A DNA stretch of 64,000 nucleotides from Chiloscyllium plagiosum (taxonomy: Eukaryota): assembly GCF_004010195.1 (NCBI RefSeq), contig NC_057735.1:11013371-11077370 (forward strand), given 5' to 3'. The translations under genes were made by a program, and so were the position numbers. Position 1 is the first letter of the stretch, and every line of letters starts with the position of its first letter. The notes beneath the pieces are model-generated. The model was given only the letters and a program-made list of their open reading frames with translations, ran no database searches and was not told where the DNA came from. Below, in pieces: positions 22,418 through 56,700 of this stretch.

Positions 22418-22508
22418 CTAATGTTTTCGTGTAAACATTGTGACTGAAACAGAACAAATCACCAGGAGAGTGAAGAGTACCCAGCGTATCACATCCCAGA
22501 CAACGTAA
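22418..22508 (-). CDS. Gene B TM/tail exon YVVWDVIRWVLFTLLVICSVSVTMFTRKH*
   Basis: Phase-2 acceptor. The TAG is followed directly by the donor-like gtgagc. Confidence 0.88.
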
Positions 22509-25500
22509 CTGTGTAAAACAGAAGAAATACGAAATCATTTGAAGGAAACAAGACTGCTTGATGTTTCAAACATTTATCCCCTGTTTACACTGCAGTATAT
22601 TGTATCAAAATAAAGCAGCACAGCTCAGGGAGTTAAGTGGGAAAATTAAATTACAGTTTAATTTATGATTGACTTGAACAACATATAAAGACCAAATGCA
22701 ACAAGTTTCAGTAGCACATCCTGTCATGCTCAGCATCTTGTTATCAATGAGGATTATTAGATGTGGATGGATATTTGCAGGAGCACTGCAGTCTGGTGTA
22801 ATATTCCAGTGGGTGAGAAGTCCCTTCAGTGAGTGAGGAACTCAGAATATCATTATCCCACACTGCTCCTGCACCTTCTAACAGGCAAGGCTTAACCAGC
22901 TGGAACCTGACAGCCTCCCACCTGCTCAGTTTGGGAATAATGTTTTACATGAGTGACCGGAGGAGGAGATGGTGATAGAGAGTGTAATGTCCCTGGCAGT
23001 GATACTCCAGACAGCCTGGCTCAACAAAATCTGTCATTTCTTTGGAAAATACAACGTCACGAGCTTAGATGAATAATGAAGCATTTAACCTGGGACGTGG
23101 CAGGCAGATAATTGGCACTTCATTTGATGAATTTCTAATAACATAAATAGCAACATTGTAACTATCACGATGTGGAAATTGAACCCCTCTGCTAATTAAA
23201 ACTAAAATTAAAACACCCAGAAAAGCTCACCTGAAGCTCACCAGTAAGGAAGTGAACATAATAATATTGTATAAAATGAGTGATCGTTTCCATTCTGATA
23301 AATCATTGTCTGAAACTGAAACTCATTGAAAGCTTTTATGCTGAATCACTTATTCTCACTTGGAATCAATGCTAATGGAAATATCGACAATGAAATTGTT
23401 CTACCTTTGACTGACAGACTTGGGCCCTGAAGATGTTCTTGTTGCTGTTGGTGATGTTGTTGGTGATATTGTTGAGGAATTATCACAAGTATATTCCCTT
23501 CCTGTTGAGACATAAGGTAATATTCAGCTGCAACTGAGTCTCACTTACAGAACATTTCTGTGATCCAGGACCTTCGGGTGACCATCCTCCAAGGCGGACT
23601 TCGGGACAGGCAGCAGCGAAAAGTGGCTGAGCAGAGGCTGATAGCTAAGTTCGGTACCCATAGGGAGGGCCTCAACAGGGACCGTGGGTTCATATCACAC
23701 TGCAGGTGACCACCATTGCACTATACAAACACACAGACACTTCTATACACACACAAATGCACAGACACACCTATACATAGACACACACACAGGCACTCAC
23801 ACACACTCCCACACTCTCACCTGTACCCTGTCGCTGACTTAGACCCCTTTACACTCACACACATATTCACTCTCTCTCACAGACACTCACAACCCCGCAC
23901 CCCAGACACACACACAAACACACACACACTCCTACAGACACACACCCTCCCACACTCATACATGCACCCTCTCACAGACTTAGACCCAGTTACACTCACA
24001 CACACATATACACTCTCTCTCACAGATACTCACAACCCCCCACCCCAGACACACACACACACAAAAACCCACATGCACACATACACATATACGTTTGTGG
24101 GGTGAATTTATACTTGCAGAGTTACATTGAACTTTGCTCAAAAACTGCATGAATCCATGTAAGACTCTGTTAACTCACTTTTTAGATTAGAATCAGTCTA
24201 AACATTATGGCACAGACAACAGAACATGGGGGCTAACACCTTCAACATCTTAACATCTTATCTGGGCTGACACCAATTGTTACAGTTTACCTGAGAATGT
24301 AACTTTTTTTTAAATTGTGATTTACATATGAAAGAAGTGAAACTATCATGGTCATTCTAACAGATGAGAGACTTAAACAATCAAGGTATTTTTCAATGTA
24401 TAATTTCAGTTACATCACAATGTAAACTTTTGCTATAAATTCTGAGTCTTACAATTGCGTCCTCCACAACCACCTGATGAAGGAGTGGCGCTCTGAAAGC
24501 TAGTGCTTCCAATTAAATCTGTTGGATTATAACCTGGTGTTGTGTGATTTTTAACTTTGTACACCCCAGTCCAACACCGGCACCTCCAAATCATGACCAA
24601 GAGAGCACTCTTCAAAAAAAGAACCTCAGGACTTGTTGTGAATAATGGATTTTGTTGAATTAGTTTTGCTATAAATCCCCAAGTCTGGCAAGATATGGTA
24701 GTGACCTATTTTGTACATAATTTGTATTTTGTTCCTCATCTGGACATTGATGCTCCTGTATTCTTATTAAAGCATTTGAAAAGCCGAAGTTGGGTTGGAC
24801 TATATTACTAAGATCTCCTTTCTCCTCATTGTCAAACATAAAAGAAAATTCCAGCCACTGAGCTGGTCACTGCTCCCGCTGGACAATGTATTCCTGGGGA
24901 TCCAGCAGCCCCTGCTCTGTCCTGTAATATTCTGTGATTGCTGGGTGAGCTTCCACTGTGATTTTTGCCTTCACTATGGTATTTAGACCCAATGATGTAG
25001 TCTTTACGTTAGCTCCTGTTACATGAGAACAAGGCGTCGATGTAGTAGTACTGACAAATCAAAAGGTATGGATAACAGTGACTGGCCTAAACATATCTCA
25101 CAGCCACTGGCACTTCAGGGTCTGGGTTAAAACTGAGGTATTCAGTTATATACAGTGACACCCGTCCATCAGCATGTCATTTCTGATGTGACCCTGACTA
25201 AAATGGAGTCTGACACCATTATCCCCTCAGATCACATGCTACGATGCAGTGATGACTTTATCTATTAAAGGTATAACACACACAAGCTGTGAGATGTAAC
25301 ACAAAGCAGAAGTGCAGCATTTATGCATTTTCTGGAGCTTTATTACAATTTTGTCCATTTTCAAAAATAAATTAACACCTTGTCCAAAATTGTTCCAACA
25401 TCAAAGAGACGTGATGTGATGAGGTACAGTTATTTGTAATATGAAAGAAACTTAACCAATGAGCAGTTTGAATAAACATTGAATGAATGTGTCAGCCTCA

Positions 25501-28500
25501 GTGTTTGTATAAAACTTACCAATGCTGCTGATTTATATCATGGAACTACAGCCCCTCTCTGCTACACTGGGAACTCAGACATGAACCATTTCATTGGGTT
25601 TTGTTCCCTGAGAATTTGAGACTGTGCAGTAATATTGATGATTTTGTTGTGTGAAGGATTGACAATGCAGATCCAGTTTATTGGTGACAGAGATCATTGA
25701 ATCGGGAAATGGGGTCTTCTCAGACCATGTGACGTGACTGGGGAGGCACCCTTGGACAAACTCACAGGAGACTGTCACTGAACTGGAAATGTGTTGCTGG
25801 AAAAGCGCAGCAGGTCAGGCAGCATCCAGGGAACAGGAGAATCGACGTTTTGGGCATAAGCCCTTCTTCAGGAATGGGGAAAGTTTGTCCAGCAGGCTAA
25901 GATAAAAGGTATGATGGATTTGACTGAGACAGGGTGGGGGGGGAAATGAGGAAACTGGTGAAATCTGAGTTCATCCCTTGTGGTTGGAGGGTTCCTAGCC
26001 GGAAGATGAGGCGTTCTTCCTCCAACCGTCGTTTTGTTGTGGTCTGACGATGGAGGATTCCAAAGACCTGCATATCCTTGGTGGAGTGGGAGGGGGAATT
26101 GAAATGTTGAGCTACAGGGTGGTTGGGTTGGTTGGTCCGGGTGTCCCAGAGGTGTTCTCTGAAACGCTCCGCAAGTAGCCGGCCTGTCTCCCCAATATAG
26201 AGGAGGCCACATCGGGTGCAGCTCTGATCTCCAGCATCTGCAGACCTCACTTTCTCCTCCTTCTTTGCGAAATAAACATTTATTACAAAACTGACTGTAA
26301 TTGAAGAACCAAAAACCTCCACCACTTTGCCCTTCACTATCCCATTTAGTGTCATAGACTCATTTGGCACAGAAATAGACCCTTCGGGTTAATACGTCCG
26401 TGCCAAACAAGTTTCTCAAAACACACCAGTCCCACTTGCCTGCATTTGGCCTATATCCCTCCAAATCTTTCTTATTCATGTGCTGATCCAAATATCTTTT
26501 TAACGTTGCAACTGACCCGTCATCTCCCATGTCCTCTGGCAGCTCATTCCACATATGAGCCACCCTCTGTGTGAGAATGTTGCCCCTCAGGTTCATTTTA
26601 CATCTTTCTCCTCTCACCGTGAAAACATGACCCCTCACTTTGAACTCTCCCAGCCTAGTGAAAGCAACGTTTGCTAATCACCTTATCTAGATCCCTCATG
26701 ATTTTATAAACCTCGATAAAGTCACCTCCCAACCTCCTCCACTCCAGGGGAAAAAGTCCCAGCCTATCCTTATCACTCAAACCCTCCAGTCACAGCAACA
26801 TCTTAGGAAATCTTTTCTGAAACCTCTTCAATTTAATAATAACCTTCCTGAAGCAGGGTGACTCGAACTGTACACATTAAACCAAAAGTAGCCTCACCAT
26901 CATTCTATACAAGCGACATGTGATGTTCCAACTCTTACACTCAATGGTCTGAGCAATGATGGTGAGCATGCTAAATACCTTCTTTACCACCCTGTCTACT
27001 TCTGATGCAAATTTCAAAGATCCCTTGGGTCTCTGTGTTCAACAGCACAACCCAGGGCCCTACTTTTAATTGTATTAGTCCTATCCTTATTTGTTCTACC
27101 AAAAACCTTTAGCTCACATTGATCCAAATTAAACTCCATCTGCCACTCGTCAGCCCATTGGCCCAATTGGTCAAGATCCTTTTGCAATCGTAGATAACCT
27201 TTGTCACTGTCAACAATACCACCAATTTTGGTGTCATTCATAAACTTATGAACCATGCCTTCTAAATTCTCATTCAAATCGTTTATATAAATTACACCGA
27301 TCCCTGCAGAACACCACCAGTCACAGGCCTCCAGTCCAAAAAAATAACCCCCCACCACCCTCTGTCTCCTGCCATCAAGCTAATTTTGTATTCAATTGGC
27401 GAGCTCACCCTGAATCCCATGTGATCTAACTTTACAAATTAGTCGAGAATGTGGAAACCTCATGGAGATAACAAATACTGTTCCGCCTCATTAATCTTAT
27501 CGCTGACATCCTGAAGAAAATGTAATCAAGTTTGTGATGCCACAATTTTCCACATACTATCCCTAATCTGTTCGTGCCTCTGCAAATGCATGTAAATCCG
27601 ATCTCTCAATATTGCCTTCAACAACTAACCGCTGATGTCAGACCCACAGATCCATAATGCCCATGCTTCTCCATTCAGCTTTTCCGAAATGAAGGCATAA
27701 CATTCGCCAAATTCCAGCCCTCCGCAATCTCACCTGTGACTGCGGATGATGCAACTAGCTCAACTATGGGCCCCTCAACTTTCCAAATTTCCCACACTGT
27801 CCTGGGAGACACTTGATTGGGTTCTGGAGATTTATACATTGTTATGTATTTTAAAACTTTCAGCACTTCCTATCTGTAATATGGACTGTTTTCATGACAT
27901 CAATATTTAATTCCCTGAGTTCCCTAATCTCCACGTCTTTCTCCACAGTAAAATATTCAAAATATTTGTTTAGTACCTCCCCCATTTATGAAGAACTTAG
28001 TTGCAGGAAGCAAATGGTTGTGATGTAGCAATGGAGTTGTTGCAATGCTTCTCCATGCTGTGGGCTGGATTTTATACACCTGCTCATTTTCCAAGTACAG
28101 TGCTAACCATTGGCTTAATTCAGAACTGATAATGAAACAAATGGAGTGCATTTTATCAATTACAGTTTCCCAGAGAGAGATAGTAAACAAACATTGTTTA
28201 CATCACACTTACTGATGCTGTTGGTCTGTATCCTGTAACTGCAGTTCTTCTCTCTTACATTGTTGACTGACACATGAACAATTTCACTGGGTTTTGTTCC
28301 CTGAGTATTTGAGGCTGTGCAGTAATATTGATGATGTTTCTGTGTGAAGGATTGACAATGTAGATCCAGTTTATTGGTGTCAGAGATCATTGAACCTTGA
28401 GATGGGGTCTTCTCAGACCATGTGTAGTGAATGGGGAGGGATCCCTGGGCAGACTCACAGGAGACTGTCACTGAACCCCCAGAACATGAGACATTTGGTT

Positions 28501-31060
28501 GGGATAAAAATCGAAGTCCAGGAAAAGAGACGGCTTCTGTGGGAAAGAAACAATTATTCTGTGAGAAAAATCAAATAACCTCCAACACTTTGCCACTTTT
28601 CTTCCTGGATAAAACACTGATCGGGCATATCAGCAGAGAGTATTTTTTAAAAATCACTGAGAGATTTACCGTCAGAGATGTTCAGCTTTACATTAAACAT
28701 TGGGTCAAAGGCAAAAGTCTTAATCCCACAGTTGTACCATCCTGCATCTTCCCATTGAAGATTAGTGATTGTGACAAGAAATATTCCTTGTGTTTTGTCG
28801 TCAGTGATCGTTATTCTCCCATTTGGCCAATTTGTTTTTGCTCTAACAGAACACAGACGACTCCATCCTTGACACCAATATTTCACGTGTGACTGGTACT
28901 GCTGCGCTTCGTAATGACAAGATATTGTGATCGCTCTTCCCAAAATTCCCGTTACGTGTTCCTCTGCCCATAAAGCACCTGAAACTGAAGAGACAATATT
29001 TCAGAAATTTAACTGGAAAGGACTGCTTAAAACAATCAGATACATTTTAATCAGCTACATTCCATCCAGTACATGATGAATGTAATCATTAACATAAACC
29101 CTTATCAGAGCCTCAGGGTGTTCTAAATTCCCAGGGAATGATTGAAACAGTCGGGATATTTTCTTACCCCACTGGTCGAGCTTTGGGATAATCTTGAAAT
29201 TGGGTTTGTGCTGCCCGCTGTGGGCTCTGACTCCACCGTCTGTGACATCATCGAAACGTTGCCCCTACCCCCCACCCCGCTGGAGAGCAGCCTGAGTGAC
29301 AGGCCTGGGTTGGAGTCGGCTGGGGATCAGTGTGAAGGAGGGCACAGGTGCTGAAGGGTCCTTATTCCGACCAGAGAAGGAGGGTTTCATCCAGGGAGGA
29401 GAGGGGAGTGTGTGGAGACTCATGGTGGGCTCAGAGGCTGCATTTTCAGGGCTAAAGGGGCAGATACAACAGGTGACCCAGGAAGATGATGAGAGACCTC
29501 GAGTGGGAGAGGAAGAGAATTGGAGTTTCGCGAGGGATGGTTCGTGATGGGAGAGAGAGATCAATGTGCAGGACCTTGAGTGCAGTAAAGGCAGGATGGT
29601 TTGTAATCACACATTGTTGTCAATGTAAGGAGAGTAAACTAACAGAAGGAATTTACTGATTGTTCCAGAGAGATTGCTCCTGAGAAAATACATAAATTGC
29701 TGCCAGATTGTGTCACAGTGTGGAAGAGGAGCAGCCTGTTGATGACTGGATAGACATTACTTCAATAAATAATGAGAGAAACGTTATGAAGCGTAAATGA
29801 AGAGCTGGAATGGAGAGAAGAAAGGACAAAGACAATTGCATGATTCAAGGTGGTGAAGGGCAGGAAACAGACCTTATTTAATAAAGGAAACCTTGAAAGA
29901 AAGAGAATTGCGAAAGCAGAGAGATGAACGCTTCAGATTTCTGTCTGTGACGTTTTCTGTATGAAATTGGTGGGCAACAGCTGCAAAATGTTTCAGAAAG
30001 TTTTCATGGACCAGAATTCACAGAGTTGTAGCCGAGAGTACTGCAACATTGGGAATTTTAAACATGAGTGTTTGAAAATGTCTTGATCATAAATGGAGAG
30101 ATGGCAATGATGGGCTGCAATTGTATTGCCGTGTTACATTGTAATGTGAAAACCAATAGGATTGAAAGAGAGTAAGCAACTTGATTCAAGTTAACGACTG
30201 AAAGAAATAAAGCTTTGTATGGGAAGTGGAATATAAACCAACCATCTGCTTTTGTGACAGAGCCTCACGAAACAATATTTAATGAACTGCAATTCAAAAA
30301 TAAAACAAAAGCAAACTCAAGATGTTTTGTTTGAGGGCATATTACCCTCCAGTTTTCGGTGTATATTGAGCTCTCAAAATTTTGGATAATTTAAAACGAT
30401 TCTGCTAGTGTGTTCACTTAAAAGAAACATTACGTTGTCCTTTTTATTTCATTGATAATTACTAATGCTGCTCCAAAGTATTTGGGAACACTATCATAAT
30501 GTGTTTAGGAGAAGATAGAACATTTTATGATGTATTTTATGTATTTTTATGTTTGTTCATTTAAATTCAAAGGCTTCCATATATAGAGACACATGGCGCA
30601 GACAAAGTCCATGCTGTGTCTGTTTTCTGCAGCTTATCACTCACCTGAAGCCAGTTGCCGTAATGTGAGGGGTGTCACTCTGATTGGATAAGGCTGACCT
30701 GGAATCTCACCCAGTCTTGCTCCCTACCCTGGGTATGTTGGAAGGATTTGCAAGTTGATAATGAATCTCTTTCGCTTTGTGAGAATACACATTCCTTTGC
30801 AAAATGTGCTGGAGTGAGAATCGTACTCTCAGTATTTTTCCCAGCAATAACAATATCACCCATTGTGTCACAAGCTCTTCCTTTATCCTTTATACATCTT
30901 CAAATATTTAAACATTCTCACTGCATTCTCACTGCAAATATTTAAACATTCTCACTGCATAAACCACACAGTGGACTTCAACAAACATTGGTTATCTAAT
31001 ATACAACTATGATGGTCACTCACCAGGAATGGAACAAATGAGGAGAATCAAAGTCCACAT
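22418..31060 (-). CDS. Gene B: CD300/pIgR-like activating-type receptor, 5 coding exons, 287 aa
   Basis: Exons 31024-31060, 28670-28984, 28213-28536, 23405-23501 and 22418-22508 total 864 nt, GT-AG and in frame. An extra in-frame ATG lies at 31061-31063. The model requires skipping the pseudo-exon at 25520-25783. Confidence 0.85.
23405..23501 (-). CDS. Gene B stalk exon (R)REYTCDNSSTISPTTSPTATRTSSGPKSVSQ(S)
   Basis: Acceptor tctcaacag, donor gtagaa, 97 nt, phase 1 to 2. Confidence 0.85.
23552..24595 (+). mobile_element. Penelope-like element 3' end with a CA-rich internal repeat
   Basis: Encodes ...LRVTILQGGLRDRQQRKVAEQRLIAKFGTHREGLNRD. CA-rich tract at 23720-24090. Hammerhead-like core ctgatga...gaaa at ~24474-24498. 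Confidence 0.8.
25520..25783 (-). pseudogene. Dead C2-domain exon inside gene B intron 3
   Basis: VTVSCEFVQGCLPSHVTW...YYCTVSN...MVHV*. In-frame stops. The 5' end is replaced by a Penelope-like insertion, and the gtaagt donor is retained. Confidence 0.88.
25784..26260 (-). mobile_element. Penelope-like GIY-YIG fragment with inverted terminal piece
   Basis: ORF CTRCGLLYIGETGRLLAERFREH...EERLIFRLGTLQPQGMN. Confidence 0.85.
26360..27990 (-). mobile_element. Degraded CR1 LINE
   Basis: YINDL...KFMNDTKIGG and the CR1 3' end. Confidence 0.85.
28213..28536 (-). CDS. Gene B Ig C2-type domain exon
   Basis: 324 nt, open frame, 11 aa differences from the gene A exon. Confidence 0.92.
28670..28984 (-). 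CDS. Gene B Ig V-set domain exon (CD300/pIgR type)
   Basis: VSGALWAEEHVTGILGRAITISCHY...KYWCQGWSRLC...DAGWYNCG, 315 nt. Confidence 0.95.
31024..31060 (-). CDS. Gene B signal-peptide exon MWTLILLICSIP
   Basis: Homologous to 16221-16257, donor gtgagt. Confidence 0.88.
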
Positions 31061-31148
31061 CATTTTATTCTCAAAGATTTTTAATTTAGTCTCTCAACTC
31101 TTATTTCTCACTTTGAAGAAAGTGTGTTATGCAATGTCCGCAGGATGT

Positions 31149-36425: not shown

Positions 36426-37411
36426 ATAGTGAAAGACAATTGGAAATGGAGAATAAATGGGAGAGAGTTGGACTCGTAATGAGATGGAAATGAGATAGTC
36501 ACATCTCATTGGAGAGAATAATGAATATTCAATCAAGATACAAAGTTCCAACTGGTGTCAAAGGTGCAGGAAGTCTTCATTTTCCCACATTGGTCAAGGT
36601 GAGAGCACCAGATTCAATGAGTAACTGGAAAGAAATATCAGATACATTGAGACAGAGCGCGATGCCTTATTGTTCATGTTAGTTTTGATTTGAATTCTGG
36701 ACATGGCAATGAACTGAGCAAAGCTTGTAATGAACTGGAGCTATGTCCAGATCACACTCCTCCTTCCCCATTGCCTATTGCACATGTGCTGGGAAAATAA
36801 TCCAGATCAATTCCACTTGAACACGTGTGACATTGGTATATCACAGAGAATTAATGCTTCCCTGCAGTTGTGCTGGTGAGCAGTTGACCGCAGGAATAAG
36901 TTAAGACATACAATGTCAGAGCAAAAGTTCAGCCCATTGAGTCTGTTCTGCCATTCAGTGAGATCATGACTGATCTGATAATCCTCAATCCCACTTTCCA
37001 GTGTTTTCTCATAGTTCTTCATTCACTGACTGATTAAACACCAGACTATCTCAGCCTTGAGTGTACTTAATGGCACAGCCTCATCAATCATCTTTGGCAA
37101 ATACTTCTACAGATTCACAACTACCTTAGAGATAAAAACATCTCCTCATCTTGATCCAGTGTTCTGAAATGATACCCTCTGGTCCAAGCCTTACCCACAA
37201 GGAGAAACATCCATTCTGCATCCACCCCATCAAGTCCTCGATGTAGCTTGCACATTTCAATTAGCTCACCTCTCATTTTTCTGGATTCCCATGAGTATAG
37301 GACCAATTCTACTCAACCTCTCCTCATAAAATAATCCCTCCATACCTTGGATCAGCCTAGTGTTCAACCTTAATACCTCCTGTGGACAGGAAAGGATTTA
37401 TAATGATCTTT

Positions 37412-38111
37412 TGATATGAAAATATATGTGTACTGTACCTTTAAGAGAGTTAAATTCAACAGAACTACCGTCGGATCTAAGTGTTTTGAAAAAAAAAGTG
37501 TAACATTTGGTCGAACAACTTGATCAGCTGGTTGCCTAGAAATGACTAGACAGGTTTGAAATAGGCCAATCAGTTTAAATTATACCCCGAAAAATGCCAA
37601 AATCCAATCCAGTGTGAATTTAGTATATTGACAATCTTAAAAGCCAATGACACAATCTGATGCATTGGGGGTGTAAGACAGGGGAAAACTGAACAGTTGA
37701 GAGGAGAACAGCCAAGCCACCAACATGTAAAAAGACTGCCCATAAAATAGATCTCTTAAAGGTACCTTTATCGATTAGTAACCTGAGAAGTAGCATTCCC
37801 AGGAAGAAGCAAAGAAGACTGAAATGCAGAGAAGAATGAAAGCTGCCTGGTTTTGAGACAAGAAATTTTATTTTGGAAATTATAATGGGGAGTTTTATTG
37901 GACTAGTACTGGAGAAGAAGAAGGGAAAAGACAGATTTGAGGAAGGAGTTGGAAATAGTTAATCTCTGTTATACATTAAGAACTAATGTTGTTAATTTTT
38001 ACTTTACCTAGTTCTTGGCCTATCAAATTTTCACTGATTACTACACAGGATAACTCTTTTCTATGTTGTTGGTTTTAAATTAAGCAGGAGAGTTTACCTC
38101 GTGTTGTGACA
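37412..38111 (+). mobile_element. Solo LTR, ~700 bp
   Basis: TG...CA termini and a near-perfect 4-bp TSD (cttt/tttt). Absent from the paralogous site at ~21990. Confidence 0.7.
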
Positions 38112-40361
38112 TTTTACAACAGCATTGTACAATGTTTTTGAAATATAATTATGCAGAAATGTGAAAAGGCCCAGAGTAGGCCATTCAGCCCCTCCAGGCC
38201 CCTTCAGCATTCACCTGGATCATGGCAGATCTTCCACCTGAATACCATTTTTGTTGCATTAGCTCAAGTCCCTCCAAATCTGTATTACTCAGAACATTAA
38301 CGATCTCTGTTTTGAATATACTCAAGGCTGGAGCCTCCAGAGCTCTCTGGGGCAGAGAATTCCAACAAACCATCACCCTCATCTCAGTCCCAAATGGTCA
38401 ACCCATTCTTCTCAAACTGTGTTTCCTGCTTCAAAACCCCTCCACCCAGGGCCACCTCATTGATGGGGAACTTAGAGTGCTCAAAATCATTCGTGTAAAG
38501 GCCATGATGCTCACCTAATGTTTTCGTGTAAACATTGTGACTGAAAGAGAACAAATCACCAGGAGAGTGAAGAGTCCCAGCATATCACATCCCAGACAAC
38601 GCAACTGTGTAAAACAGAAAAAACATAAAGTAATTTGAAGTAAACAAGACTGCTTCATATTTCAAACATTTATCCCCTGTTTACACTGCAATCTCAGTAT
38701 ATTTCAGCAAAGTAACACAGCACATGTTAGGGAAATAATTGAGAAAATTAAATTACAGTTTAATTTATTACTGAGACGCACAACAGATAAAGTAAAACTG
38801 AAACAAGTTTCAGTACTGTAGTACATCCTGTAATGTTATATAAACTGATGAGGCAGTCTTTATGTTAGCGCTTGTCACATGTAGACAAGGTGTGGCTATT
38901 GTAGTCCTAACAAATCACAGATGTTTAGAACAGCCTCTGGTCTAAATGTATCTCACAGCCACAGAAATGAACAACAGATAAAGGTCAAATGAAACAAGTT
39001 GCAGTAACATGTCCTGGAATGGTCAGCCCAATGTTATACGTGCGGATTATAAGGTTAAATGGTTGGACATTTACAGGTGGCACTGCACTCTGGTGCCTTG
39101 TAACCAGTGGGTGAGATGTGTCTTCAATCAGAATAGCATAATTCCATCATGTAAAAATTCTGACTGAAACAGAACAAATCACCAGGAGAGTGAAGAGTGC
39201 CCAACGTATCAGATCCCAGACAATGTAACTGTGCAAAATGGAAGAAATATAAAATAATTTGAAGGAAACAAGACTGCATCATGTTTCAAACATTTATCCC
39301 TGGTGACATTGTAATCTTCTGATATGGTCACAAAGTAAAGCTGCACAGCTCAGGCAGTTCAGTGGGAAAACTAAATTACAGTTTAATTTATGAATGACAT
39401 GGACTTTATCTGTTAAAGGTGATACACACAAACAAGCTGTGAGATGTAATGCAAAGCTGGAGTGCAGCATTTATGCATTTTCTGCAGCTTTATTACAATT
39501 TTGTCCATTTTCAAAAAATTAATCAACGCCTTGTTCAAAATTGTTCAAATATCAAAGAGACGTAATGTGATGAGGTACAGTTGTTTGTCAGTATGAAAGA
39601 AACTTAACCAATGAGCAGTTTGATAAACATTGAATGAATGTGTCAGCCTCAGTGTTTGTATAAAATTTACCGATGCTGTTGATCTGTATCCTATAACTTC
39701 AGGTATAGAGTCATAGAGTCATAGAGATGTAGACCATGGAAACAGACCCTTCAGTCTAACCCGTCCATGCCGACCAGATATCCCAACCCAATCTAGTCCC
39801 ACCATTCATCACCCGGCCCATATCCCTCCAAACCCTTCCTATTCATATACCCTTCCAAATGCTTCTTAAATGTTGCAATTGTACCAGCCTCCACCACTTC
39901 CTCTAGCAGCTCATTCCATACACATACCACTCTCGGTGTGGAAAAGTTGCCCCTTAGGTCTCTTTTATATCTTTCCCCCCTCACCCTAAACCTATGCCCT
40001 CTACTTATGGACTCTCCAACCCCAGGGAAAAGATTTTGTCTATTTATCCTATCCATGCCCCTCATAATGTTGTAAACCTCTGTAAGGTCACCCTCAGCCT
40101 CCAACGCTCCAGGGAAAACAGCCCAGCCTGTTCAGCCTCTCCCTATAGCTCAAATCCTCCAACCCTGGTAACATCCTTGTACATCTTTTCTGAACCCTTT
40201 CTAGTTTCACAACATCTTTCTGATAGGAAGGAGAACAGAATTGTACGCAATATTCCCACAGTGGTCTAACCCATATCCTGTACAGCCGCAACATGACCTT
40301 CCAACTCCTGTACTCAATACTCTGACCAATAAAGGAAAGCAAACCAAACACCTTCTTCACT

Positions 40362-43300
40362 GTTGCTGAGAGAGACAGTGAATGGATGACCAAAAGACAG
40401 AAAAAGAGTAGCAAGGCAGTGCAGGTGTCCCCTGCAGTCATCTCCCTCTAAAACAGGTGTACCATTTTGAATACTGTTGGGGGAGATGGCTCACCAACGG
40501 AGGGCAGCAGTTGCCAGGATCATGGCACCACGGCAGGCACTGCTGTTCAGATGGCGAGAAAAAGACTCGTAGGGCTATAGTCATAGAGGATTCTATTGTG
40601 AGGGGAGTGGATAGGCGGTTCTGTGGCCGGAAACGGGACTCTCGGATGGTATGTTGCCTCCCAGGTGCTCGGGTTAGAGATGTCACCGATCGGCTGCAGA
40701 GCATTCTAAAAGGGGACAGTGAACAGCTAGTTGTCTTGGTGCATATAGGCACCAACGATATAAGTAGAAAATGAGATATGGTCCTGAAAGAAGAATTCAG
40801 GGAGCTAGGAAAGAAGTTAACGAGAAGGACTTCAAAGGTTGTGATCTCGGGATTGCTACCAGTGTCATGTGCTAGCCAGTGTAGAAATGAAAAAATAGGC
40901 AGGATGAACATGTGGCTTGAGGGATGGTGTAGGAGGAAGGGGTTCAGATTTGTTGGATATTGGGACCGGTTCTGGGGAAGGTGGGACTATTACAAAATGG
41001 ACAACATACATCTGAACCAGACCGGAACCAACATCCTTGGGGGAGTTTTTGCTACGGCTGTTGGGGAGGTTTTAAACTAATGTGGCAGGGGGCTGGGAAC
41101 CAGAAAAGAAAACAAGTAGGCAGCGAGGTGGAAACTGGAGACTGTAAGGATCATGAAGATAGCATTAATAAAGGGAAGAGTAGGCAGAGAGCAGATGAGC
41201 TCAAAAAAACTGGTGGCCTGAAATGCAAGGAGTATAGTGTGTAAGGCAGATGAACTTAGGGCTTGGATTGGTGCCTGGAGTATGATGTTATTGCAATCAT
41301 AGAGACTTGGTTGAAGGAAGGGCATGATGATTGGCAACTAAATGTTCCAGGATATAGATGCTTCAGACAAGACAGGGAGGGAAGTAAAAGGGGGGGTGTG
41401 GAGTTGCATTGCTGGTCAAGGATGATATCACGGCTGTGCTAAAGGAGCACACTATGGAGGTCTTGGGTAGCGAGACATTATGGGTGGAGCTGAGAAATAA
41501 GAAGGGTGCAGTTACACTGTTGGGGTTGTATTACAGGCTTCCCAACAGTGAGCGTGAGGTAGAAGAACAAATAGGTAAACAGATTATGGAAAGATGTAGA
41601 GGCAATAGGTTAGTGGAGATGTGAGATTTTAATTTTCCCAACATTGACTGGGATACACTTAACGTCAGAGGTCTGGATGGAGTAGAATTTGGAAGAAGTG
41701 TCCAGGAGAGTTTTCTAGAGCAGTATGTCAATAGTCCGATGAGGAAAGGGGCCATATTGGACCCGGTACTGGGGAACGAGCCAGGACAGGTGGTAGAAGT
41801 TGCGGTGGAGATTTCTTTGGGAACAGTGACCACAATTCTGTAAGTTTTAGAATACTCGTAGATAAAGAAGAGAGTGGTCCTAAGGGAAGAGTACTAAACT
41901 GGGTCAAGGCCAATTATATCAAAATTAGGCAGGAGCTCAGAAATGTGGATTGGATGCAACTATTTGAAGGGAAGTCCACATTTGAGATGTGGGAGGCCTT
42001 CAAAGATTGGTTAAAGATAGTGCAAGATAGGCATGTCCTATTGAAGATGGAAATGTGTTGCTGGAAAAGCGCAGCAGGTCAGGCAGCATCTAGGGAACAG
42101 GAGAATCGACGTTTTGGGCACCAGCCCTTCTTCAGGAATATAAATATAGCCTTCCTGAAGAAGGGCTGGTGCCTGAAACGTCGATTCTCCTGTTCCCTAG
42201 ATGCTGCCTGACCTGCTGCGCTTTTCCAGCAACACATTTCCATCTCTGATCTCCAGCATCTGCAGACCTCACTTTCTCCTGTCCTATTGAAGGCAAAGGA
42301 TAGGAAGGGCAAGATTTCTGAATCGTGGATGACAGGAGAAATTGTACAACTAGCCAAGAGGAAAAGGGAAGCATGCATGAGGTCTAGGTAGCTGAGGACA
42401 GAATGGGCCCTGGAGGAATATCGGAAGAGTAGGATAAGTCTTAAATGAGGAATCAAACAGGCTAAAAGGGGTCATGAAATAACTTTAGTGAGCAGAATTA
42501 AGGAGAATCCCAAAGCATTTTATTTTTATATAAGAAGCAAGCGGGTAACTAGAGAAAGGTTTGGTCCACTGAAGAATAACGAAGGAATTGAACCTGAGAG
42601 AATAGGTGAAATTCTAATGATTACTTTGCATCAGTGTTCACTGAGGAGAGGAACATGATGAATGTTGAAATTAGCGATAGAGTTTGATTAGTCTGGATCA
42701 TGTTGACATAAGTAGGGAAGATGTGTTGGGTATGCTTGAGGTTATTCAGGTGGACAAACCCCAGACCGGATGGGATCTATCCCAGGTTGCTGAGGGAGGC
42801 AAGAGAGGAATAGTTGGGCCCTGACAGATTCTTTGTGGCATCCTCAAATACAAGTGAGGTGCCGAAGAACTGGAGGGTTGCTCATGTTGTCCCCCTGTAG
42901 GGATATTCCGGGTAACTACAGACCAGTGAGCCTGACGTTGGTGGTGGAAAAGTTGCTGGAGAAGGTACTGAGGGATAGGATCTATTTATATTTAGAAAAG
43001 AATGGGCTTATCAGTGATAGGCAACATGGTTTTGTGCAGGGCAGATCGTGCCTTTCCAACTTTATAGAGTTCTTCGAGGAAGTGACCAAGTTGATAGATG
43101 AAGGAAAGGCTGTTGATGTCATACACATGGACTTTAGTAAGGCATTTGATAAGGTTCCCCATGGTAGTCTAATGGAGAAAGTGAAGTCATATGGTGTGCA
43201 GGGTGTTCTAGCTAGGTGGATAAAGAAACTGGTTGAGCAGTTGTTGTTGAAGGGAATTTCTCAAAATGGAAAAAAGATGACCAGTGGTGTTCCACAGGGA

Positions 43301-44263
43301 TCAGTGTTGGGGCCATTGTTGTTTGTAATATCCATAAATGATCAGCAAGTTTGCAGATGACACGAAGGTTGGTGGAGTAGCAGAAAGCATAAGGGACTGT
43401 TAGAGAATACAGAAGGATATAGATAGACTGGAGAGTTGGGTGGAAAAGTGGCAGATGGTTTTCAATCCAGACAAATGTGAGGTGATGCATTTAGGCAAGA
43501 TTAATTCTAGAGCGAATTATACAATGAACGGAAGAGCCTTGGGAAAAGTTGATGGGCAGAGAGATCTGGGAGTGCAGGTCCATTGTACCCTGAAGGTTAC
43601 TGCACAGGTGGATAGAGTGGTCAAGAAGGCATATAGAATGCTTGCCTTTATTGGACAGGGTATTGAGGAGAAGAGCTGGCAAGTTATGTTAACATTGTAC
43701 AAGACATTGGTTCGGCTGCATTTAGAATACTGTGTACAGGTCTGGTCGCCACATTACCAAAAGAATGTGGACGCTTTGGAGAGGGTGCAGAGAAGGTTTA
43801 TGAGGATGTTGCCGGGTATGGAAGGTGCTACCTATGAAGAAAGGTTGAGTGGTTAGGTTTATTTTCATTAGAAAAAAAGGAGATTGAGGAGGGACCTGAT
43901 TGAGGTTTACAACGTCATGAAGGGTATAGAAGGGTGGATAGATACAAGCTTTTTCCCAGGGTGAAGGATTCAATAACGAGAGGTCACACTTTCAAGGTGA
44001 GAGGTAGAAAGTTTAAAGTGGATACACGCGGCAAGTACTTCACACAGAGGTTGGTGGGCGTTTAGAATGCTTTGCCAGCAGAGGTGGTAGAGGCAGGCGC
44101 AGTTGATTCATTTAAGTTGTGTCTGGATAAATGCATGAGTAGATGGGGAGTAGAGGGATACAGCTGCTTAGGAATTGACGGATAGGTTTAGATAGTACGT
44201 TTGGATCAGCTGAGGCCTGTTTGTGGGCTGTAAATTTTCTTTGTTCTTTCTTTGTTCTTCTTT
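40362..44263 (+). mobile_element. Near full-length inner CR1 LINE (ORF1 SGNH-esterase, APE endonuclease, RT; disrupted)
   Basis: IVIEDSIVRGVD...CCLPGARV, TLLGLYYRLPN, DFSKAFDKVPH, GVPQGSVLGP, and a (ttctttg)n tail. Confidence 0.92.
42047..42279. mobile_element. Foldback Penelope-derived element with 13-bp TSD
   Basis: TSD tgtcctattgaag at 42034-42046 and 42280-42292. Inverted arms of ~92 bp with a ~12-nt loop. Confidence 0.88.
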
Positions 44264-47200
44264 ATCCTATCTACCTGCGACCTTCAAGGAGCTATGAACC
44301 TGCATTCCAAGGTCTCTCTGTTCAGCAACACTCCCCAGCACCTTACCATTAAATGTATAAGTCCTGCTCAGATTTGCTTTCCCAAAATGAAGCACCTCAC
44401 ATTTATCTGAATTAAACTCCATCTGCCACTTCTCAGCCCATTGACCCATCTGGTCAAGATCCTGTTGTAATCTGAGGCATCCCTCTTCAATGTCCACTAC
44501 ACCTCCAATTTTGATGTCATCTACAAACCTACTAACTGGACGTCTTATGCTCGCATCCAAATCATTTATGTACATGAGAAAAAATAGAGGGTCCAGCACC
44601 GATCCTTGTAGCACTCCACTGGTCACAGGCCTCCAGTCTGAAAAACAACCCTCCACCACCATCTAAGGTCTTCTACCTTTGAGCCAGTTCTGCATCCAAA
44701 TGGCTAGTTCTCCCTGTATTCTGTGAGAGCTAACCTTGCTAACCACTGTGCTCCATCGTGACAATATATTGTGATCGCTCTTCCCAAAATTCCCATTACG
44801 TGTTTCTCTGTCCATAAAGCACCTGTAACTGAGGAGTCAATATTTCAGAAATTTAACTGGGAAGAAATGCGTAACATAAACAGATATATTTTAATCAGCT
44901 ACATTCCATGGGGAACCTTGTTGAATGCCTTACTGATGTCCAGATAAATCACATCTATTGCTCTGTCCTCATCAATCCACGTTGTTACTTCTTCTTCTCT
45001 GTTATTTCACTGGATTTTGTTCCCTGAGTATTTGAGGCTGTGCAGTAATATTGATGATGTTGCTGTGTGAAGGATTGACAATGTAGATCCAGTTTATTGG
45101 TGTCAGAGATCTTTGAATCTTTAGATGGGGTCTTCTCAGACCATGTGTAGTGAATGGAGAGGGATCCCTGGGCAGACTCACAGGAGACTGTCACTGAACC
45201 TCCAGAACATGAGACATTTGTTGGGGATAAAATTCCAAGTTGGTGAGTGGAACAGCTTCTGTGGGAAAGAAACAACTATTGAGAAATTGAATGTAATCGA
45301 AACATCAAATACTCCCAAAACTTTGTCAAGTTTCTTCTGGGATTAAATATTGACCAGTCATCTCAACAAAGAGTAATAAAAAATATCACTGAGACCTTTA
45401 CCGTCAGAGGTGTGCAGCTTTACAGTAAACATTGGGTCAAGGGCAGGAGGCTCAATCCCACAGCTGTACCATCCTGCATTTCCCCATTGAAGATTCTTCA
45501 TTGTGTTAAGAAATATTCCTTGTGTTTGGTTATCAGTGATTGATGTTCTGGCCAATTTATTGTTGCTAGAAAATCAGAACGACGACTCCAAACGTGACAC
45601 CAATGTTTAATGTTTGATTGGTACCATTGTGCTCCGTCGTGACAATATATTGTGATCGCTCTTCCCAAAATTCCCATTATGTGTTTCTCTGTCTATGAAG
45701 TACCTGAAACGGAGGACTCAATATTTCAGAAATTTAACCGGGAAGAAATGTGTAACATAAACAGATATATTTTAATCAGCTACATTCCATCCAGTATATG
45801 ATAAAGGTAATCATTAATATAAACCCTTATCAGAGGCTCAGGGTGTGCAAATTCCCAGGGAATGATTGAAACAGTCAGGATATTTTCTTACCCCATTGGT
45901 CGTGCTTTGGGACAATCTTGAAATTGGGTTTGTGCTGCCCGCAGTGGGCTCTGACTCCACCGTGTGTGACATCATCGAAATGTTGTCCCCTCAGAGAGCA
46001 GCCTGAGTGACAGGCCTGGATTGGAGTCGGCTGGGGATCAGTGTGAAGGAGGGTACAGGTGCTGAAGGGTCCTTACTCCGACCGGAGAAGGAGGGTTTCA
46101 TCCAGGGAGGAGAGGGGAGTGTGTGGACTCATAGTGGGCTCAGGGGCTGCATTTTCAGGGCTCAAGGGGCAGATACAACAGGTGACCCAGGCAAGATGAT
46201 GAGAGACCTCAAGTTGGAGAGGTAGAGAATTGAACTTCAGCAAGGGATGGTTCATGAGGGGAGAGAGAGATCAATGTGCAGGGCCTTGAGGACAGTAAAG
46301 ACAGGATTGTTGTCAGTGTACAGATAGTAAAATAACAGCAGTAATTTACTGATTATTCTCTCCTCTCCTCTTAAAAATGTGCCCCTGAGTCTTGAAATTC
46401 CCCATCTCAGGGAAAAGACAACTACCATCAACTCTATCTATATCTCTCAGTATTTTATAATCTCCTGTCACATCACTTCTCAACTTCCTAAGCTCTTCTG
46501 AACTCCAGCAAATCCTAGCCTAAGCTATATACAACATGCAACTAAAGATGTTTCACGAGAGATAATCCTGTATCTTAGATTTAATCCAACCACCATTAAA
46601 TATCATGGACCAACCCTATTTACTGCTCATCGACACTGAGTTTGTCTTCTGCCAGGGACGTCAGAGGGCATCCTTCCCAACATGGTATCAGTGGCTCAGA
46701 TTAATGCCAGCATGATGGATTGGTGGTGTCTAATCTACCCAAGATATCCCAGATCATATCCTGCATTACAAGATTGAAAACTTCCTTCTCAGCAGCAATC
46801 TTTGACCATAATAGAGCAATCAATCAGAAACACACTTCTGAAAAGTGCTTTCCATCATGATCTTAGTTCCAGTTAAGTGCCCTATTCAGAACTTGAGTAA
46901 GAAATGGTCCTTTCTCATTCTCACTAATGCTGTGGTATCAGGGTTGCAACTGGATCATGGCAGCCACTTTTAAAGATGGCACCTATCTCTTGAATTGGGA
47001 AACACACTCTGTAATTCTAAGACACCCTGTATTCTTGTCCAAAATCAATTCTCCCTGGTCCTCTACTTACACTTTTAGCATCAATATCTTGAGCTGTTCC
47101 ATTGTTCTGCCTTTCTTTCCCTTCAAAGTTTACGCAATCTCAAAGTATTCCTTGTTTCTGAAGTCTTTGGCAGCTCTCACCCTCATTTATCTTCTTTTCT

Positions 47201-53413: not shown

Positions 53414-53704
53414 CTAACATTTAACATTAGCATAAATTGCCATTTCAGATTCAGGTGGATTCTCTGTTGTTGAAGAGACTACATTGTCCTCTGGAAGCTG
53501 GCTTTGAACCAGGGCATTTCCCCTGTTAGCTGAACAACTTGATGTCTCACCATTCCGTGCTGATGACTTCTTTTGAAAGTGTAAATCTGCATATATGACT
53601 CCATCTGTAGTATTCTTGAAATGGACAGTTCCTTCACTCTGTCTTGACCTGCTTTGACTGTGAATACTTGAATATACAATGTTCTCTTCTGCTCCTACCA
53701 TTTG
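53414..53704 (-). CDS. Gene D terminal cytoplasmic exon with ITIMs
   Basis: Acceptor tttttgttttag. Motifs IVYSSI, VIYADL and AIYANV, then TAG. Confidence 0.9.
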   Translation of the reverse strand, partial: QMVGAEENIVYSSIHSQSRSRQSEGTVHFKNTTDGVIYADLHFQKKSSARNGETSSCSANRGNALVQSQLPEDNVVSSTTENPPESEMAIYANVKC

Positions 53705-56700
53705 CTAAAACAAAAACACAAAGTTTGAATTCATTTTTGATTAATGGTAATTTGTGTTACTATGAAGGGAAATCTATTTTTGGATTATCATAAATTAATT
53801 GACAAACTGTTACAAGTTTTATAAGTTATCCAGCAATGAAACAAACAATTCGGTCTGGTAAGTTCATCGACACAAACCTGCTCACATTAGTCTTCATTTA
53901 AAACAATGGTATGTGCTTTCAGTCCTTTCCAGCTCGTGTGCTGATGTGAAGTGGCAGTTAGGCAGTGTGGCAGTCAGTGTAGACGACAGCATATATATTC
54001 ACAAAGGGATACCCTGACAGACTAAGTGAATGGGCAACATTGTGACAGGTGGAGTTCAATGTCAGTGTGTGAGGTTATCTATTTTGGAATGAGAAAGGAT
54101 CGATCAGGATACTTTCTGGATGACATGAAGGTAAATATAATGAAGTTAAATATAATATAAAAGAAAGCTGGGAGTTCAAAGACCTTTAAAATGTCAAGTA
54201 AATCATCAATGAAGCTAACAGAATGCTGACCTTTATGTCTAGGGTGGCACAGTGGCTCAGTGGTTAGCACTGTCATTTCACGGCGCTAGGGACATGGATT
54301 TGATTCCCACCTCAGGCAACTGTCTGTGTGGAATTAGACACCTTCTCCCCGTGTCTGTGTGAGTTTCCTTTCAAAGTCTAAAGATTTGCAGGCCAGGTGA
54401 ATTGGCCATTCTAAATTGCCCATAGCGTTAGCTGCATTAGTCAGAGGGAAATGGGTCTGGGTGGATGCCTCTTCGAGGATTGGTGTGGACTTGGTGGACC
54501 AAAGGGCTGGTTTCCACACTGGAGGGAATCTAACTTTATTTGGAGGACACAGATGCAGAAGTGGTGCAACACTTATACAAAATCATGATTAGTTCCCACT
54601 TGGAGTACTCTGAGCAGATCTTGGCACTCTACCTCCGGAAGGCTATTTTGGCGTTGCAGGGAGTACAAAAGCAGGTTTACAAGAACATGACCAAGAATTT
54701 TGGGGTTAAGTTATGAGGAGGTTTGCAGAAATTTATGCCTGTTTTCTTTCAAATTTAGAAGTGTAGGGGGTGATCTGATTGAAATTTCAGGATATTAAAA
54801 GGACAAAACTGGGTAGATAAAGATTAACTATTTCCACTGGTTTCTTGAACGAGTGGGGATTATATTAGATTCTCTACAATGTAGGGATAGGCCCTTCGGC
54901 CCAACAAGTCCACACCGACCCTCCGAAGAGTAACCCACCCAGACCCATTCTCCTCTGACTAATGCATCTAACACTATGGGCAATTTAGCATGGCCAATTC
55001 ACCTGGCCTGCACATCTTTGGATGGTGGGCAGAAGCCAGAGCACCCAGAAGAAACCCACGCAGTCATGGGAAGAATGTGCAAATTCCACACAGACAGTCA
55101 CCTGAGGCTGGAATCGAACCTGGGTTCCTACTGCTTTGAGGCAGCAGTGCTAACCACTGAGCCACTGTGCCACCCTTAATGTGAGAATTAGGGCCAGACC
55201 ATTTGGGAGAGATATTTAAAATCACTTCTACATACAAAGGGTGGTAGATGTTTGGAATTCTGATTGAAGAAGCCCAAGTGAAGGATGAAAACATGCAACT
55301 CATTCAAAGAGGAGTGTGTCGTCATGGTGACTAGTGGAAGTAGATATTGGGGGAAAATACCATGAGGATTGATAGTATTTTCGTTTCCTTAATGTTTTTC
55401 TGTTTTTCTATGATTACATTGAACCCGACAGATGCAAATGCAGGTTGAAAAGTGTCAGCAAATACAAAGTCATGATTGAGTGCTTAATTAATTCTAATTT
55501 TTAATTGTAAAGACGACTCAAATTTTTTTATGCCCATCAATGAGAATGTTCAAAGTTTCACCAAGAGCTAGTTCAGTCAGTAGCATGGATACATTGAAGG
55601 AGAATCTCAAGAAAGACAAGAGACAAAAGAGTGAGAAGCTTCTGTTGTTCGGGTTAGTTGGAGATGGGTGGGGGGGATGTTGGTGTTGAGTGTCCCACAG
55701 GGACCAGGTGTTCTGATTGGCCTGTTTCTGTGCTGCTAGTTCATTATGTTAATTTATGATTATTATTCAAAATATTCAAACTTGATCTCCTTACCTGATT
55801 CTCAAAAGCATTATCCGTTCCAGCACCTATACCACCTTTACCTGGAAAATTACAATAGGGATGATGGATATTTGTAAAAAGGCGACACTGATGACATGTT
55901 GCAGCCTGACATTGATTTGTTCTCTTCTTCTTCTTCAATTCTGTGCGTGAAGGCATTCGGGTTATTTAACCTGTTTGGCTGCTGTGTTATGAACACCCTT
56001 CCTTTCCATCAAGTCTCAGAGTGGGATTTGAACCCAGGATTTCGTGTGAAGAGGCAGGGATGCTATTATTGCCTTACAAGACCTCCAGTTCATCACCATA
56101 CAAAGGCAAGTAGTATTTTATATTTTGTTACAAAGGGATTAGTGTAACACATAGAGAAGCAGTGAATCCATAGTGGCTGTGCTGTTTGTAGTATTGGGCT
56201 CCGCGATGGGCCCACTTATCCTTGGGTTCGCTATTCCGGATGGAAATTGTTTTACAAGGAGGGCTTGAGTAGGATGAGCTTATATTTTCTGGCATTTTGA
56301 TGATTGGAAAGTAACTGCATTGAAATGTCTAACATTCTGAAGGGACTTAGAATCATAGCATCTATGATTTCTGCAGTGGGGAAACAGGCCATTTGGCCCA
56401 TTGAGTCCACACTAACCCTCCGAAGACCATCCCACCCAGACCCATACACCCTTCTCTATTACTGTATCTCTGAAAATCCCATGGGTAATCCATCCAGCCT
56501 GCACATCCCTGGACAATTTAACACGACCAACCTACTGAACCTGCACATCTTTGAACTGGAGGAGGAAGCTGGAGCACCCGGAGAAAACCCATACGGACAG
56601 GGAGAACATACAAATTCCACACAGTTACCCGAGGCTGGAATCAAGCCCGGGTATCTAGTGCTGTGTGAGGCAGCAGTGCTAACGACTGAGCCACCACGCC

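Follow-up and report, generated by a model that had tools for sequence, protein, structure and literature searches.

The window analysed here is a 64,000-nucleotide stretch of Chiloscyllium plagiosum DNA (contig NC_057735.1, positions 11,013,371 to 11,077,370 of the forward strand). Its minus strand carries an immunoglobulin (Ig)-type receptor gene, termed gene B, together with an open paralogue (copy A), a broken one (copy C) and the 3' end of an inhibitory neighbour. The features are as follows (TM, transmembrane).

31024..31063, minus: gene B leader (signal peptide) exon, with ATG and GT donor, phase 1
28670..28984, minus: gene B V-set Ig exon of the pIgR/CD300/TREM type, with four Cys (Pfam V-set, E 4e-12)
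28213..28536, minus: gene B second Ig exon, C2/I type (Pfam Ig_3, E 2e-6, below the curated cut-off)
23405..23501, minus: gene B Ser/Thr-rich stalk exon, phase 1 to phase 2
22418..22508, minus: gene B TM exon, AG acceptor before 22508, phase 2, in frame; encodes W-D-V-I-R-W, tail R-K-H and stop
22493..22495, minus: codon of Asp264 (position -3), a variable site by residue counts over 39 segments
22484..22486, minus: codon of Arg267, the likely adaptor contact; Arg in 39/39 distinct segments, 19 residues ahead of the first cytosolic basic residue
21257..21304, minus: former cytoplasmic-tail exon downstream of the gene B stop, 15 codons and stop, phase 0, acceptor present, no Tyr; matches the tail of Mustelus P0005
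4368..16257, minus: copy A, an open V-C2-stalk-TM paralogue (TM exon from 4506); 239/285 aligned residues identical to gene B
36577..45713, minus: copy C, with broken V and C2 exons (45713-45000), an open TM exon (39228-39147), a frameshifted TM exon (38604-38515) and a tail exon (36624-36577)
53417..57810, minus: inhibitory neighbour, 3' end only: uncharged TM exon (57810-57712), tail exon (53704-53417)

Gene B has an open reading frame of 288 residues without internal stops, assembled from five exons whose splice sites are all canonical and in phase. The interval from 22508 to 22418 on the minus strand is exactly one exon, and its phase-2 acceptor fits the phase-2 donor of the stalk exon. 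It is translated as (S)-Y-V-V-W-D-V-I-R-W, followed by 17 uncharged residues and R-K-H-stop; no charged residue lies between Arg267 and Arg286. The TAG stop codon (22420-22418) abuts a GTGAGC donor. The TM exon is not a chance reading frame, since it completes an open, canonically spliced frame of 288 residues and annotated shark proteins have identical ends. The closest solved structures to the V domain are pIgR, CD300lf, CD300a, NKp44 and TREM proteins. Gene B is intact and is an ordinary representative of a paired-receptor family already known.

Contigs from two sequencing runs, whose status as RNA is a guess, lie on the TM exon from 22508 or 22510 and run on elsewhere; the stalk exon is covered by contigs with the same depth values as those on the TM exon. 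The contigs on these two exons suggest spliced transcripts of gene B or of a close paralogue. Raw reads from single-cell runs X12 and X13, of which 2% and 6% were covered, included none on gene B exons.

The introns and spacers of the window (for example, 42794-44662, 6110-7945 and 25871-26388) are filled with decayed LINE-type reverse-transcriptase fragments and short interspersed repeats, which also take almost all of the read depth. One gene B intron contains a partial, broken C2-exon copy (25781-25506, minus), a partial V-exon copy lies behind copy C (44829-44746, minus), and an intron of copy A has a run of 21 N (9299-9319).

The tandem cluster and its family

The Chiloscyllium genome has 12 close copies of the TM exon inside about 270 kb, and six distant ones. 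Ten of the cluster copies encode the D..R pair, one D..C and one D..H; thus the Arg codon is lost in two, a frameshifted copy (Cys) and a copy whose exon is broken off after the helix (His). The tail Arg codon, which is also a CpG, has become a stop in three of the 12. Mean identity of the cluster TM exons is 94.7% (66 pairs), versus 78.7% for the upstream intron. Synonymous changes in these exons (L001-L012) are few and the exons are far closer to one another than is the adjoining intron, which could reflect exon-focused gene conversion. Scattered TM-exon relatives off the cluster (L013, L015 and L016, G000:C8, C37; and L014, L017 and L018) encode His or Cys at the Arg position, and their 5' ends are altered.

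Of the three Tyr motifs in the tail exon of the inhibitory neighbour, two are ITIM-like by regular expression; the V-C2-V-C2 ectodomain of this gene lies outside the window. Other ITIM tail exons are found upstream, and ITIM genes are interleaved with Arg-type genes in the cluster. A tree was built from 31 membrane-proximal Ig domains, three of the 34 chosen database rows (P0050, P0038 and P0052) having been left out on pattern failure. Gene B and copy A group with two ITIM-bearing Chiloscyllium proteins (99/98). Proteins were labelled inhibitory if they had an uncharged TM segment or an ITIM tail (P0058, so labelled, has no ITIM by regular expression). The activating and inhibitory labels change 10 times over the tree, versus 10.4-10.5 when shuffled, and the anchor types are thus not clustered beyond chance. 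Such mixing is the usual paired-receptor pattern.

A search with P0017, the closest short relative, found 62 cartilaginous-fish proteins, including skate modular domain immune-type receptor 5 (MDIR5; E 2e-133). MDIR5 (ABC86800.1, P0030 in our set) is the closest relative of gene B with a literature name; as MDIR1-4 were outside the comparison, it is simply the nearest found, and no subtype is implied. Over the membrane-proximal V-C2-TM unit, 140 of 254 aligned residues are identical (55%). In the TM segment the figure is 16 of 27, with W-K-V-G-R-W standing opposite W-D-V-I-R-W. Chiloscyllium and Hemiscyllium, both carpet sharks, supply the nearest named proteins, which are 87-93% identical over aligned residues. 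A search of the ESM Atlas with the TM part gave no usable match.

Several database models (P0003, P0006, P0007, P0011, P0013 and P0015, from NCBI or UniRef) read the TM exon into the leader or Ig exons of the next gene, and yield long multi-unit proteins with an internal TM segment. These are likely annotation fusions of tandem genes, made via the donor beside the stop.

The membrane anchor and the tail

The frequency of Arg was determined with a pattern that leaves its position free, i.e. aromatic-x-x-x-X-W before a hydrophobic run, in proteins P0002-P0210. Two of the 41 rows found duplicate P0131 and P0186 with a shift and were left out. Arg occupies position 0 in all 39 distinct membrane segments. 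Carriers of W-x-x-x-R-W are found among sharks, rays, the chimaera Callorhinchus, the sturgeon Acipenser and the frog Ascaphus. From the Arg to the first cytosolic Lys or Arg there are 19 residues in 21/41 rows, and 19-21 in 33/41. The aromatic flanks are constant as well (Trp or Tyr at -4 and Trp at +1, each in 22/22), in a set that was picked for the motif. A structure model of P0024, which is nearly identical to gene B, predicts a single helix from Tyr-7 to the tail (22-row alignment, mean pLDDT 79.9). By spacing and by this predicted model, Arg267 lies near the N-terminal end of the TM helix and would be situated in the outer leaflet. This agrees with the earlier note, which puts the Arg close to the helix's outer end.

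Position -3 is not constrained in this way. Over the 39 segments it is Asp in 11, Lys in nine, Ser in seven, Asn in five, Ala in four, and Thr, Glu and Gly in one each. Asn is found in Mustelus, Pristiophorus and one Stegostoma protein, Lys in most rays and Ser in the chimaera; D..R is also found in proteins of Hemiscyllium, Scyliorhinus and Stegostoma. The earlier note regarded the Asp as unusual and cited the D..R pair of copies A, B and C as conserved. Its readings of the sequence are correct: copies A and B and the open TM exon in C all encode D..R, and the copy that has lost one base encodes D..C. That D..C is confined to the frameshifted copy holds for A-C, but in the cluster one of the 12 copies has D..H instead. 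The weight given to the Asp is not supported. A polar residue is to be expected at -3, since this is where the Asn of the NxxR motif sits in mammalian FcR-gamma partners, according to the available text of three papers (PMC2413239, PMC4536121, PMC6557307), and eight different residues, Lys among them, occur there in the present family. The sharing of Asp by A, B and C is uninformative, because the exons are duplicates about 95% identical and copy C is broken. The V and C2 exons of copy C have a stop and frameshifts, and its open TM exon is therefore no sign of selection. In all 12 cluster copies the Asp codon is unchanged, but so are most other codons. As far as these alignments go, Asp264 is a freely varying position that adds little. 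A role as helix N-cap is not supported; a single-sequence model that starts the helix at the Asp has a mean pLDDT of 39, and the alignment-based model starts it at Tyr-7.

The tail was said in the earlier note to have only a few residues and no Tyr motif. The latter is correct for the A, B and C copies. The former describes gene B (R-K-H) and the open TM exon of C, but in copy A a 55-base deletion takes away both stop and donor, which leaves a tail of 19 residues. Other sharks have tails of about 18 residues, also without Tyr. Downstream of the gene B stop, the sequence at 21304-21257 matches the Mustelus P0005 tail with a score of 43 (maximum of 33 in 20 shuffles); none of five other tails tried in this search scored above its own shuffles. 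A second copy of the tail exon is present behind copy C (36624-36577, minus), and no match was found downstream of copy A within the window. Distant paralogues have AAG before the donor, where gene B has TAG. One locus, L004, has GAG at this place and could still translate a tail exon. The three-residue tail of gene B is thus a derived state by sequence comparison, in which a nonsense mutation in the exon's final codon likely reduced the tail exon to 3' UTR. Being at the exon junction, the stop would escape nonsense-mediated decay.

Tail type was tallied over proteins from two homologue searches, TM segments being called by hydropathy; 21 proteins had no clear TM segment. Terminal Arg-type tails lack YxxL/I/V/M in 21 of 24 cases, and ITIM-like motifs are present in 26 of the 29 proteins with an uncharged TM segment. 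The three Arg-type tails that have YxxL belong to predicted Mobula isoforms. The designation of the gene B segment as an activating anchor in the earlier note is likely right, given the invariant outer Arg, the short motif-free tail and the adjoining ITIM paralogues; it gains little from the Asp.

The candidate signalling partner

In FcalphaRI, NKp46 and TCR-alpha an Arg near the top of the helix binds the Asp pair in a dimer of FcR-gamma or zeta, and DAP12 partners have a central Lys, according to the available text of a 2026 review (PMC13107469). Gene B fits this outer-Arg geometry, and Arg-dependent coupling to a dimer of the zeta family is therefore favoured. Gene B encodes an intact V-C2 MDIR receptor, and its outer Arg probably pairs with the Asp pair of a zeta/FcR-gamma-type dimer. 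The helix would run from about Tyr-7 to the R-K-H anchor, with Arg within the outer leaflet and Asp a turn higher, at the headgroups. Arg would make the RDD contact seen in FcalphaRI and TCR-alpha, and the disulfide-linked dimer would supply the ITAM signal that is absent from the receptor tail. Ligand binding by the V domain would lead to ITAM phosphorylation and to signalling through Syk/ZAP70 in leukocytes; ITIM paralogues, whose ectodomains are near-identical, would oppose it. The Asp would replace the Asn of NxxR as a tolerated change at the interface, with no separate switch function.

In the genome, one zeta/FcR-gamma-type TM exon scored over the cut-off (L019:1480-1581, on G000:C12), and every relative of it bears the name CD3-zeta. 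Candidate-limited searches of the genome detected no FcR-gamma TM exon, for which either the assembly or the search may be the explanation. FcR-gamma may thus be the wrong name for the adaptor, CD3-zeta being the only such TM exon found. Shark CD3-zeta retains the TM Cys and Asp. The aligned shark CD3-zeta proteins appear by eye to have two ITAM-like Tyr pairs, not three. A search for the ITAM family gave one weak match. FcR-gamma rescues NxxR receptors in Xenopus, according to the available text of PMC2413239. In a bamboo-shark single-cell study, cd247 is reported in T cells, and the terms CD300, pIgR and FcR-gamma are absent from the available main text (PMC11372145).

The Arg-Trp pair might instead be a mere interfacial anchor with a snorkelling Arg, and the protein a decoy or adhesion receptor that does not signal but competes for ligand with its ITIM paralogues. 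Trp at -4 and +1 is typical of the membrane interface, just 18 uncharged residues follow the Arg, several NxxR features are missing, and MDIR5 is reportedly described in the MDIR paper as lacking activating or signalling motifs. A plain anchor would, however, accept Lys or loss at a position where Arg is found in every one of the distinct segments, and the paralogues with an uncharged TM segment do without Arg; this explanation is unlikely. Other observations count against the preferred coupling to a zeta-family dimer. Rays mostly have Lys at -3 and Gly at -1, so the face above the Arg is not conserved, and charge is an imperfect predictor of adaptors in fish, as the TM Lys of catfish LITR 2.6b is dispensable for adaptor binding in the available text of PMC4810170. 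Another alternative is coupling to DAP10 or DAP12, not to a zeta-family dimer. Several mammalian relatives in the CD300 and TREM families use DAP12. NKG2D pairs an Arg with DAP10, but these contacts are mid-helix, as the available review text has it (PMC13107469), and the gene B Arg is near the outer end. In addition, the DAP10-family search of the genome gave a single match, under the cut-off and with a stop, although a search over split exons is a weak one. DAP10 or DAP12 as the partner is very improbable.

The Asp could also be functional in this shark lineage, either by masking the Arg in an i,i+3 salt bridge, which would permit adaptor-free surface expression, or by pairing with a Lys above the zeta Cys/Asp and so tuning adaptor choice. 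Its codon is the same throughout the cluster, D..R recurs in three other shark genera, the model places Asp and Arg one helical turn apart, and polar residues above the FcalphaRI Arg are said not to have been directly tested in the available text of the 2026 review (PMC13107469). As the copies are 94.7% identical, however, most of their other codons are just as unchanged, and this site is Asn or Ser in sister sharks and Lys in rays. A functional Asp is quite improbable. The preferred reading remains an outer Arg that probably contacts a zeta-family dimer, with the Asp as a bystander.

A broader proposal is that W-x-x-x-R-W is an overlooked activating anchor of CD300/pIgR-like receptors that dates from the last common ancestor of jawed vertebrates and is possibly a forerunner or sister of the tetrapod NxxR module, acting in sharks via a two-ITAM CD3-zeta that serves innate receptors in place of FcR-gamma. 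Tyr at -7 and the Arg are common to the two modules at the spacing of the LRC receptors. The proposal is speculative and rather unlikely as a whole. A literature search found no paper on this anchor in sharks, which, with thin coverage of subscription journals, is no proof of non-publication. The remaining interest lies in how deeply W-x-x-x-R-W is conserved and in the identity of the adaptor; gene B opens a route to the ITAM adaptor that innate receptors use in the oldest jawed-vertebrate lineage. The large and badly annotated shark MDIR cluster also gains a sorting rule, i.e. W-x-x-x-R-W with a short tail is likely activating, and an uncharged TM segment with an ITIM tail is likely inhibitory.

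Comparison with known receptors

The NxxR (TM1) receptors, which include FcalphaRI, GPVI, LILRA, NKp46, OSCAR and Xenopus XFL, share with gene B the outer Arg, a polar residue at -3, a short motif-free tail and inhibitory relatives. They also have the TM segment and a very short tail in one exon, which in gene B is a derived state, as a tail exon survives downstream. The NxxR Asn at -3 is Asp in gene B and Asn in five of the 39 relatives. According to the available text of PMC6557307, the NxxR segment starts with DYT and has an acidic C-terminal end; gene B starts with S-Y-V, with only the Tyr in common, and has a basic end, F-T-R-K-H. Ectodomains of NxxR receptors are of the LRC or FcR type, whereas that of gene B is of the CD300/pIgR type and Trp flanks its Arg. 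The gene B anchor may, by analogy, resemble the NxxR helix in its working, but it is not classed as one, given the missing Asn, DYT start and acidic C-terminal end. DAP12-coupled receptors have a central TM Lys and gene B has none.

Mammalian CD300/CLM proteins resemble gene B in the four-Cys V domain, the YWC motif and the paired activating/inhibitory cluster, and CD300lf and CD300a are among its best structural relatives. CD300 proper has just one Ig domain, of the V type, whereas gene B has V plus C2. The CD300 V domain bears YWCR and two disulfides; the V exon of gene B has YWCQ and four Cys. Mouse LMIR8/CLM-6, of the CD300/CLM family, is FcR-gamma-coupled through a TM Lys, unlike the outer Arg of gene B. 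NCBI-predicted proteins termed 'CMRF35-like molecule 8' or 'pIgR-like' (P0017, P0024 and P0009, from Chiloscyllium and Hemiscyllium) have the same TM segment and an R/Q-K-H end; their automatic names are silent on the anchor, and several models fuse adjacent genes.

The available text of PMC3031540 describes the MDIRs as a multigene family that includes both activating and inhibitory receptors, kin to CD300, TREM and pIgR. The Ig domains of gene B are akin to those of the same three groups, its kinship to a named MDIR extends across ectodomain and TM segment, and TM exon copies, interleaved ITIM genes and the tree all point to a multigene family with activating-type and inhibitory members. MDIR5 has W-x-x-x-R-W in register and a short tail without Tyr, as does gene B. 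The two differ in the number of Ig domains (four in MDIR5, two in gene B), in the residue at -3 (Lys against Asp) and in the tail that follows the helix (18 residues against three). By these sequence relationships, gene B belongs to the shark MDIR (CD300/pIgR-like) paired family.
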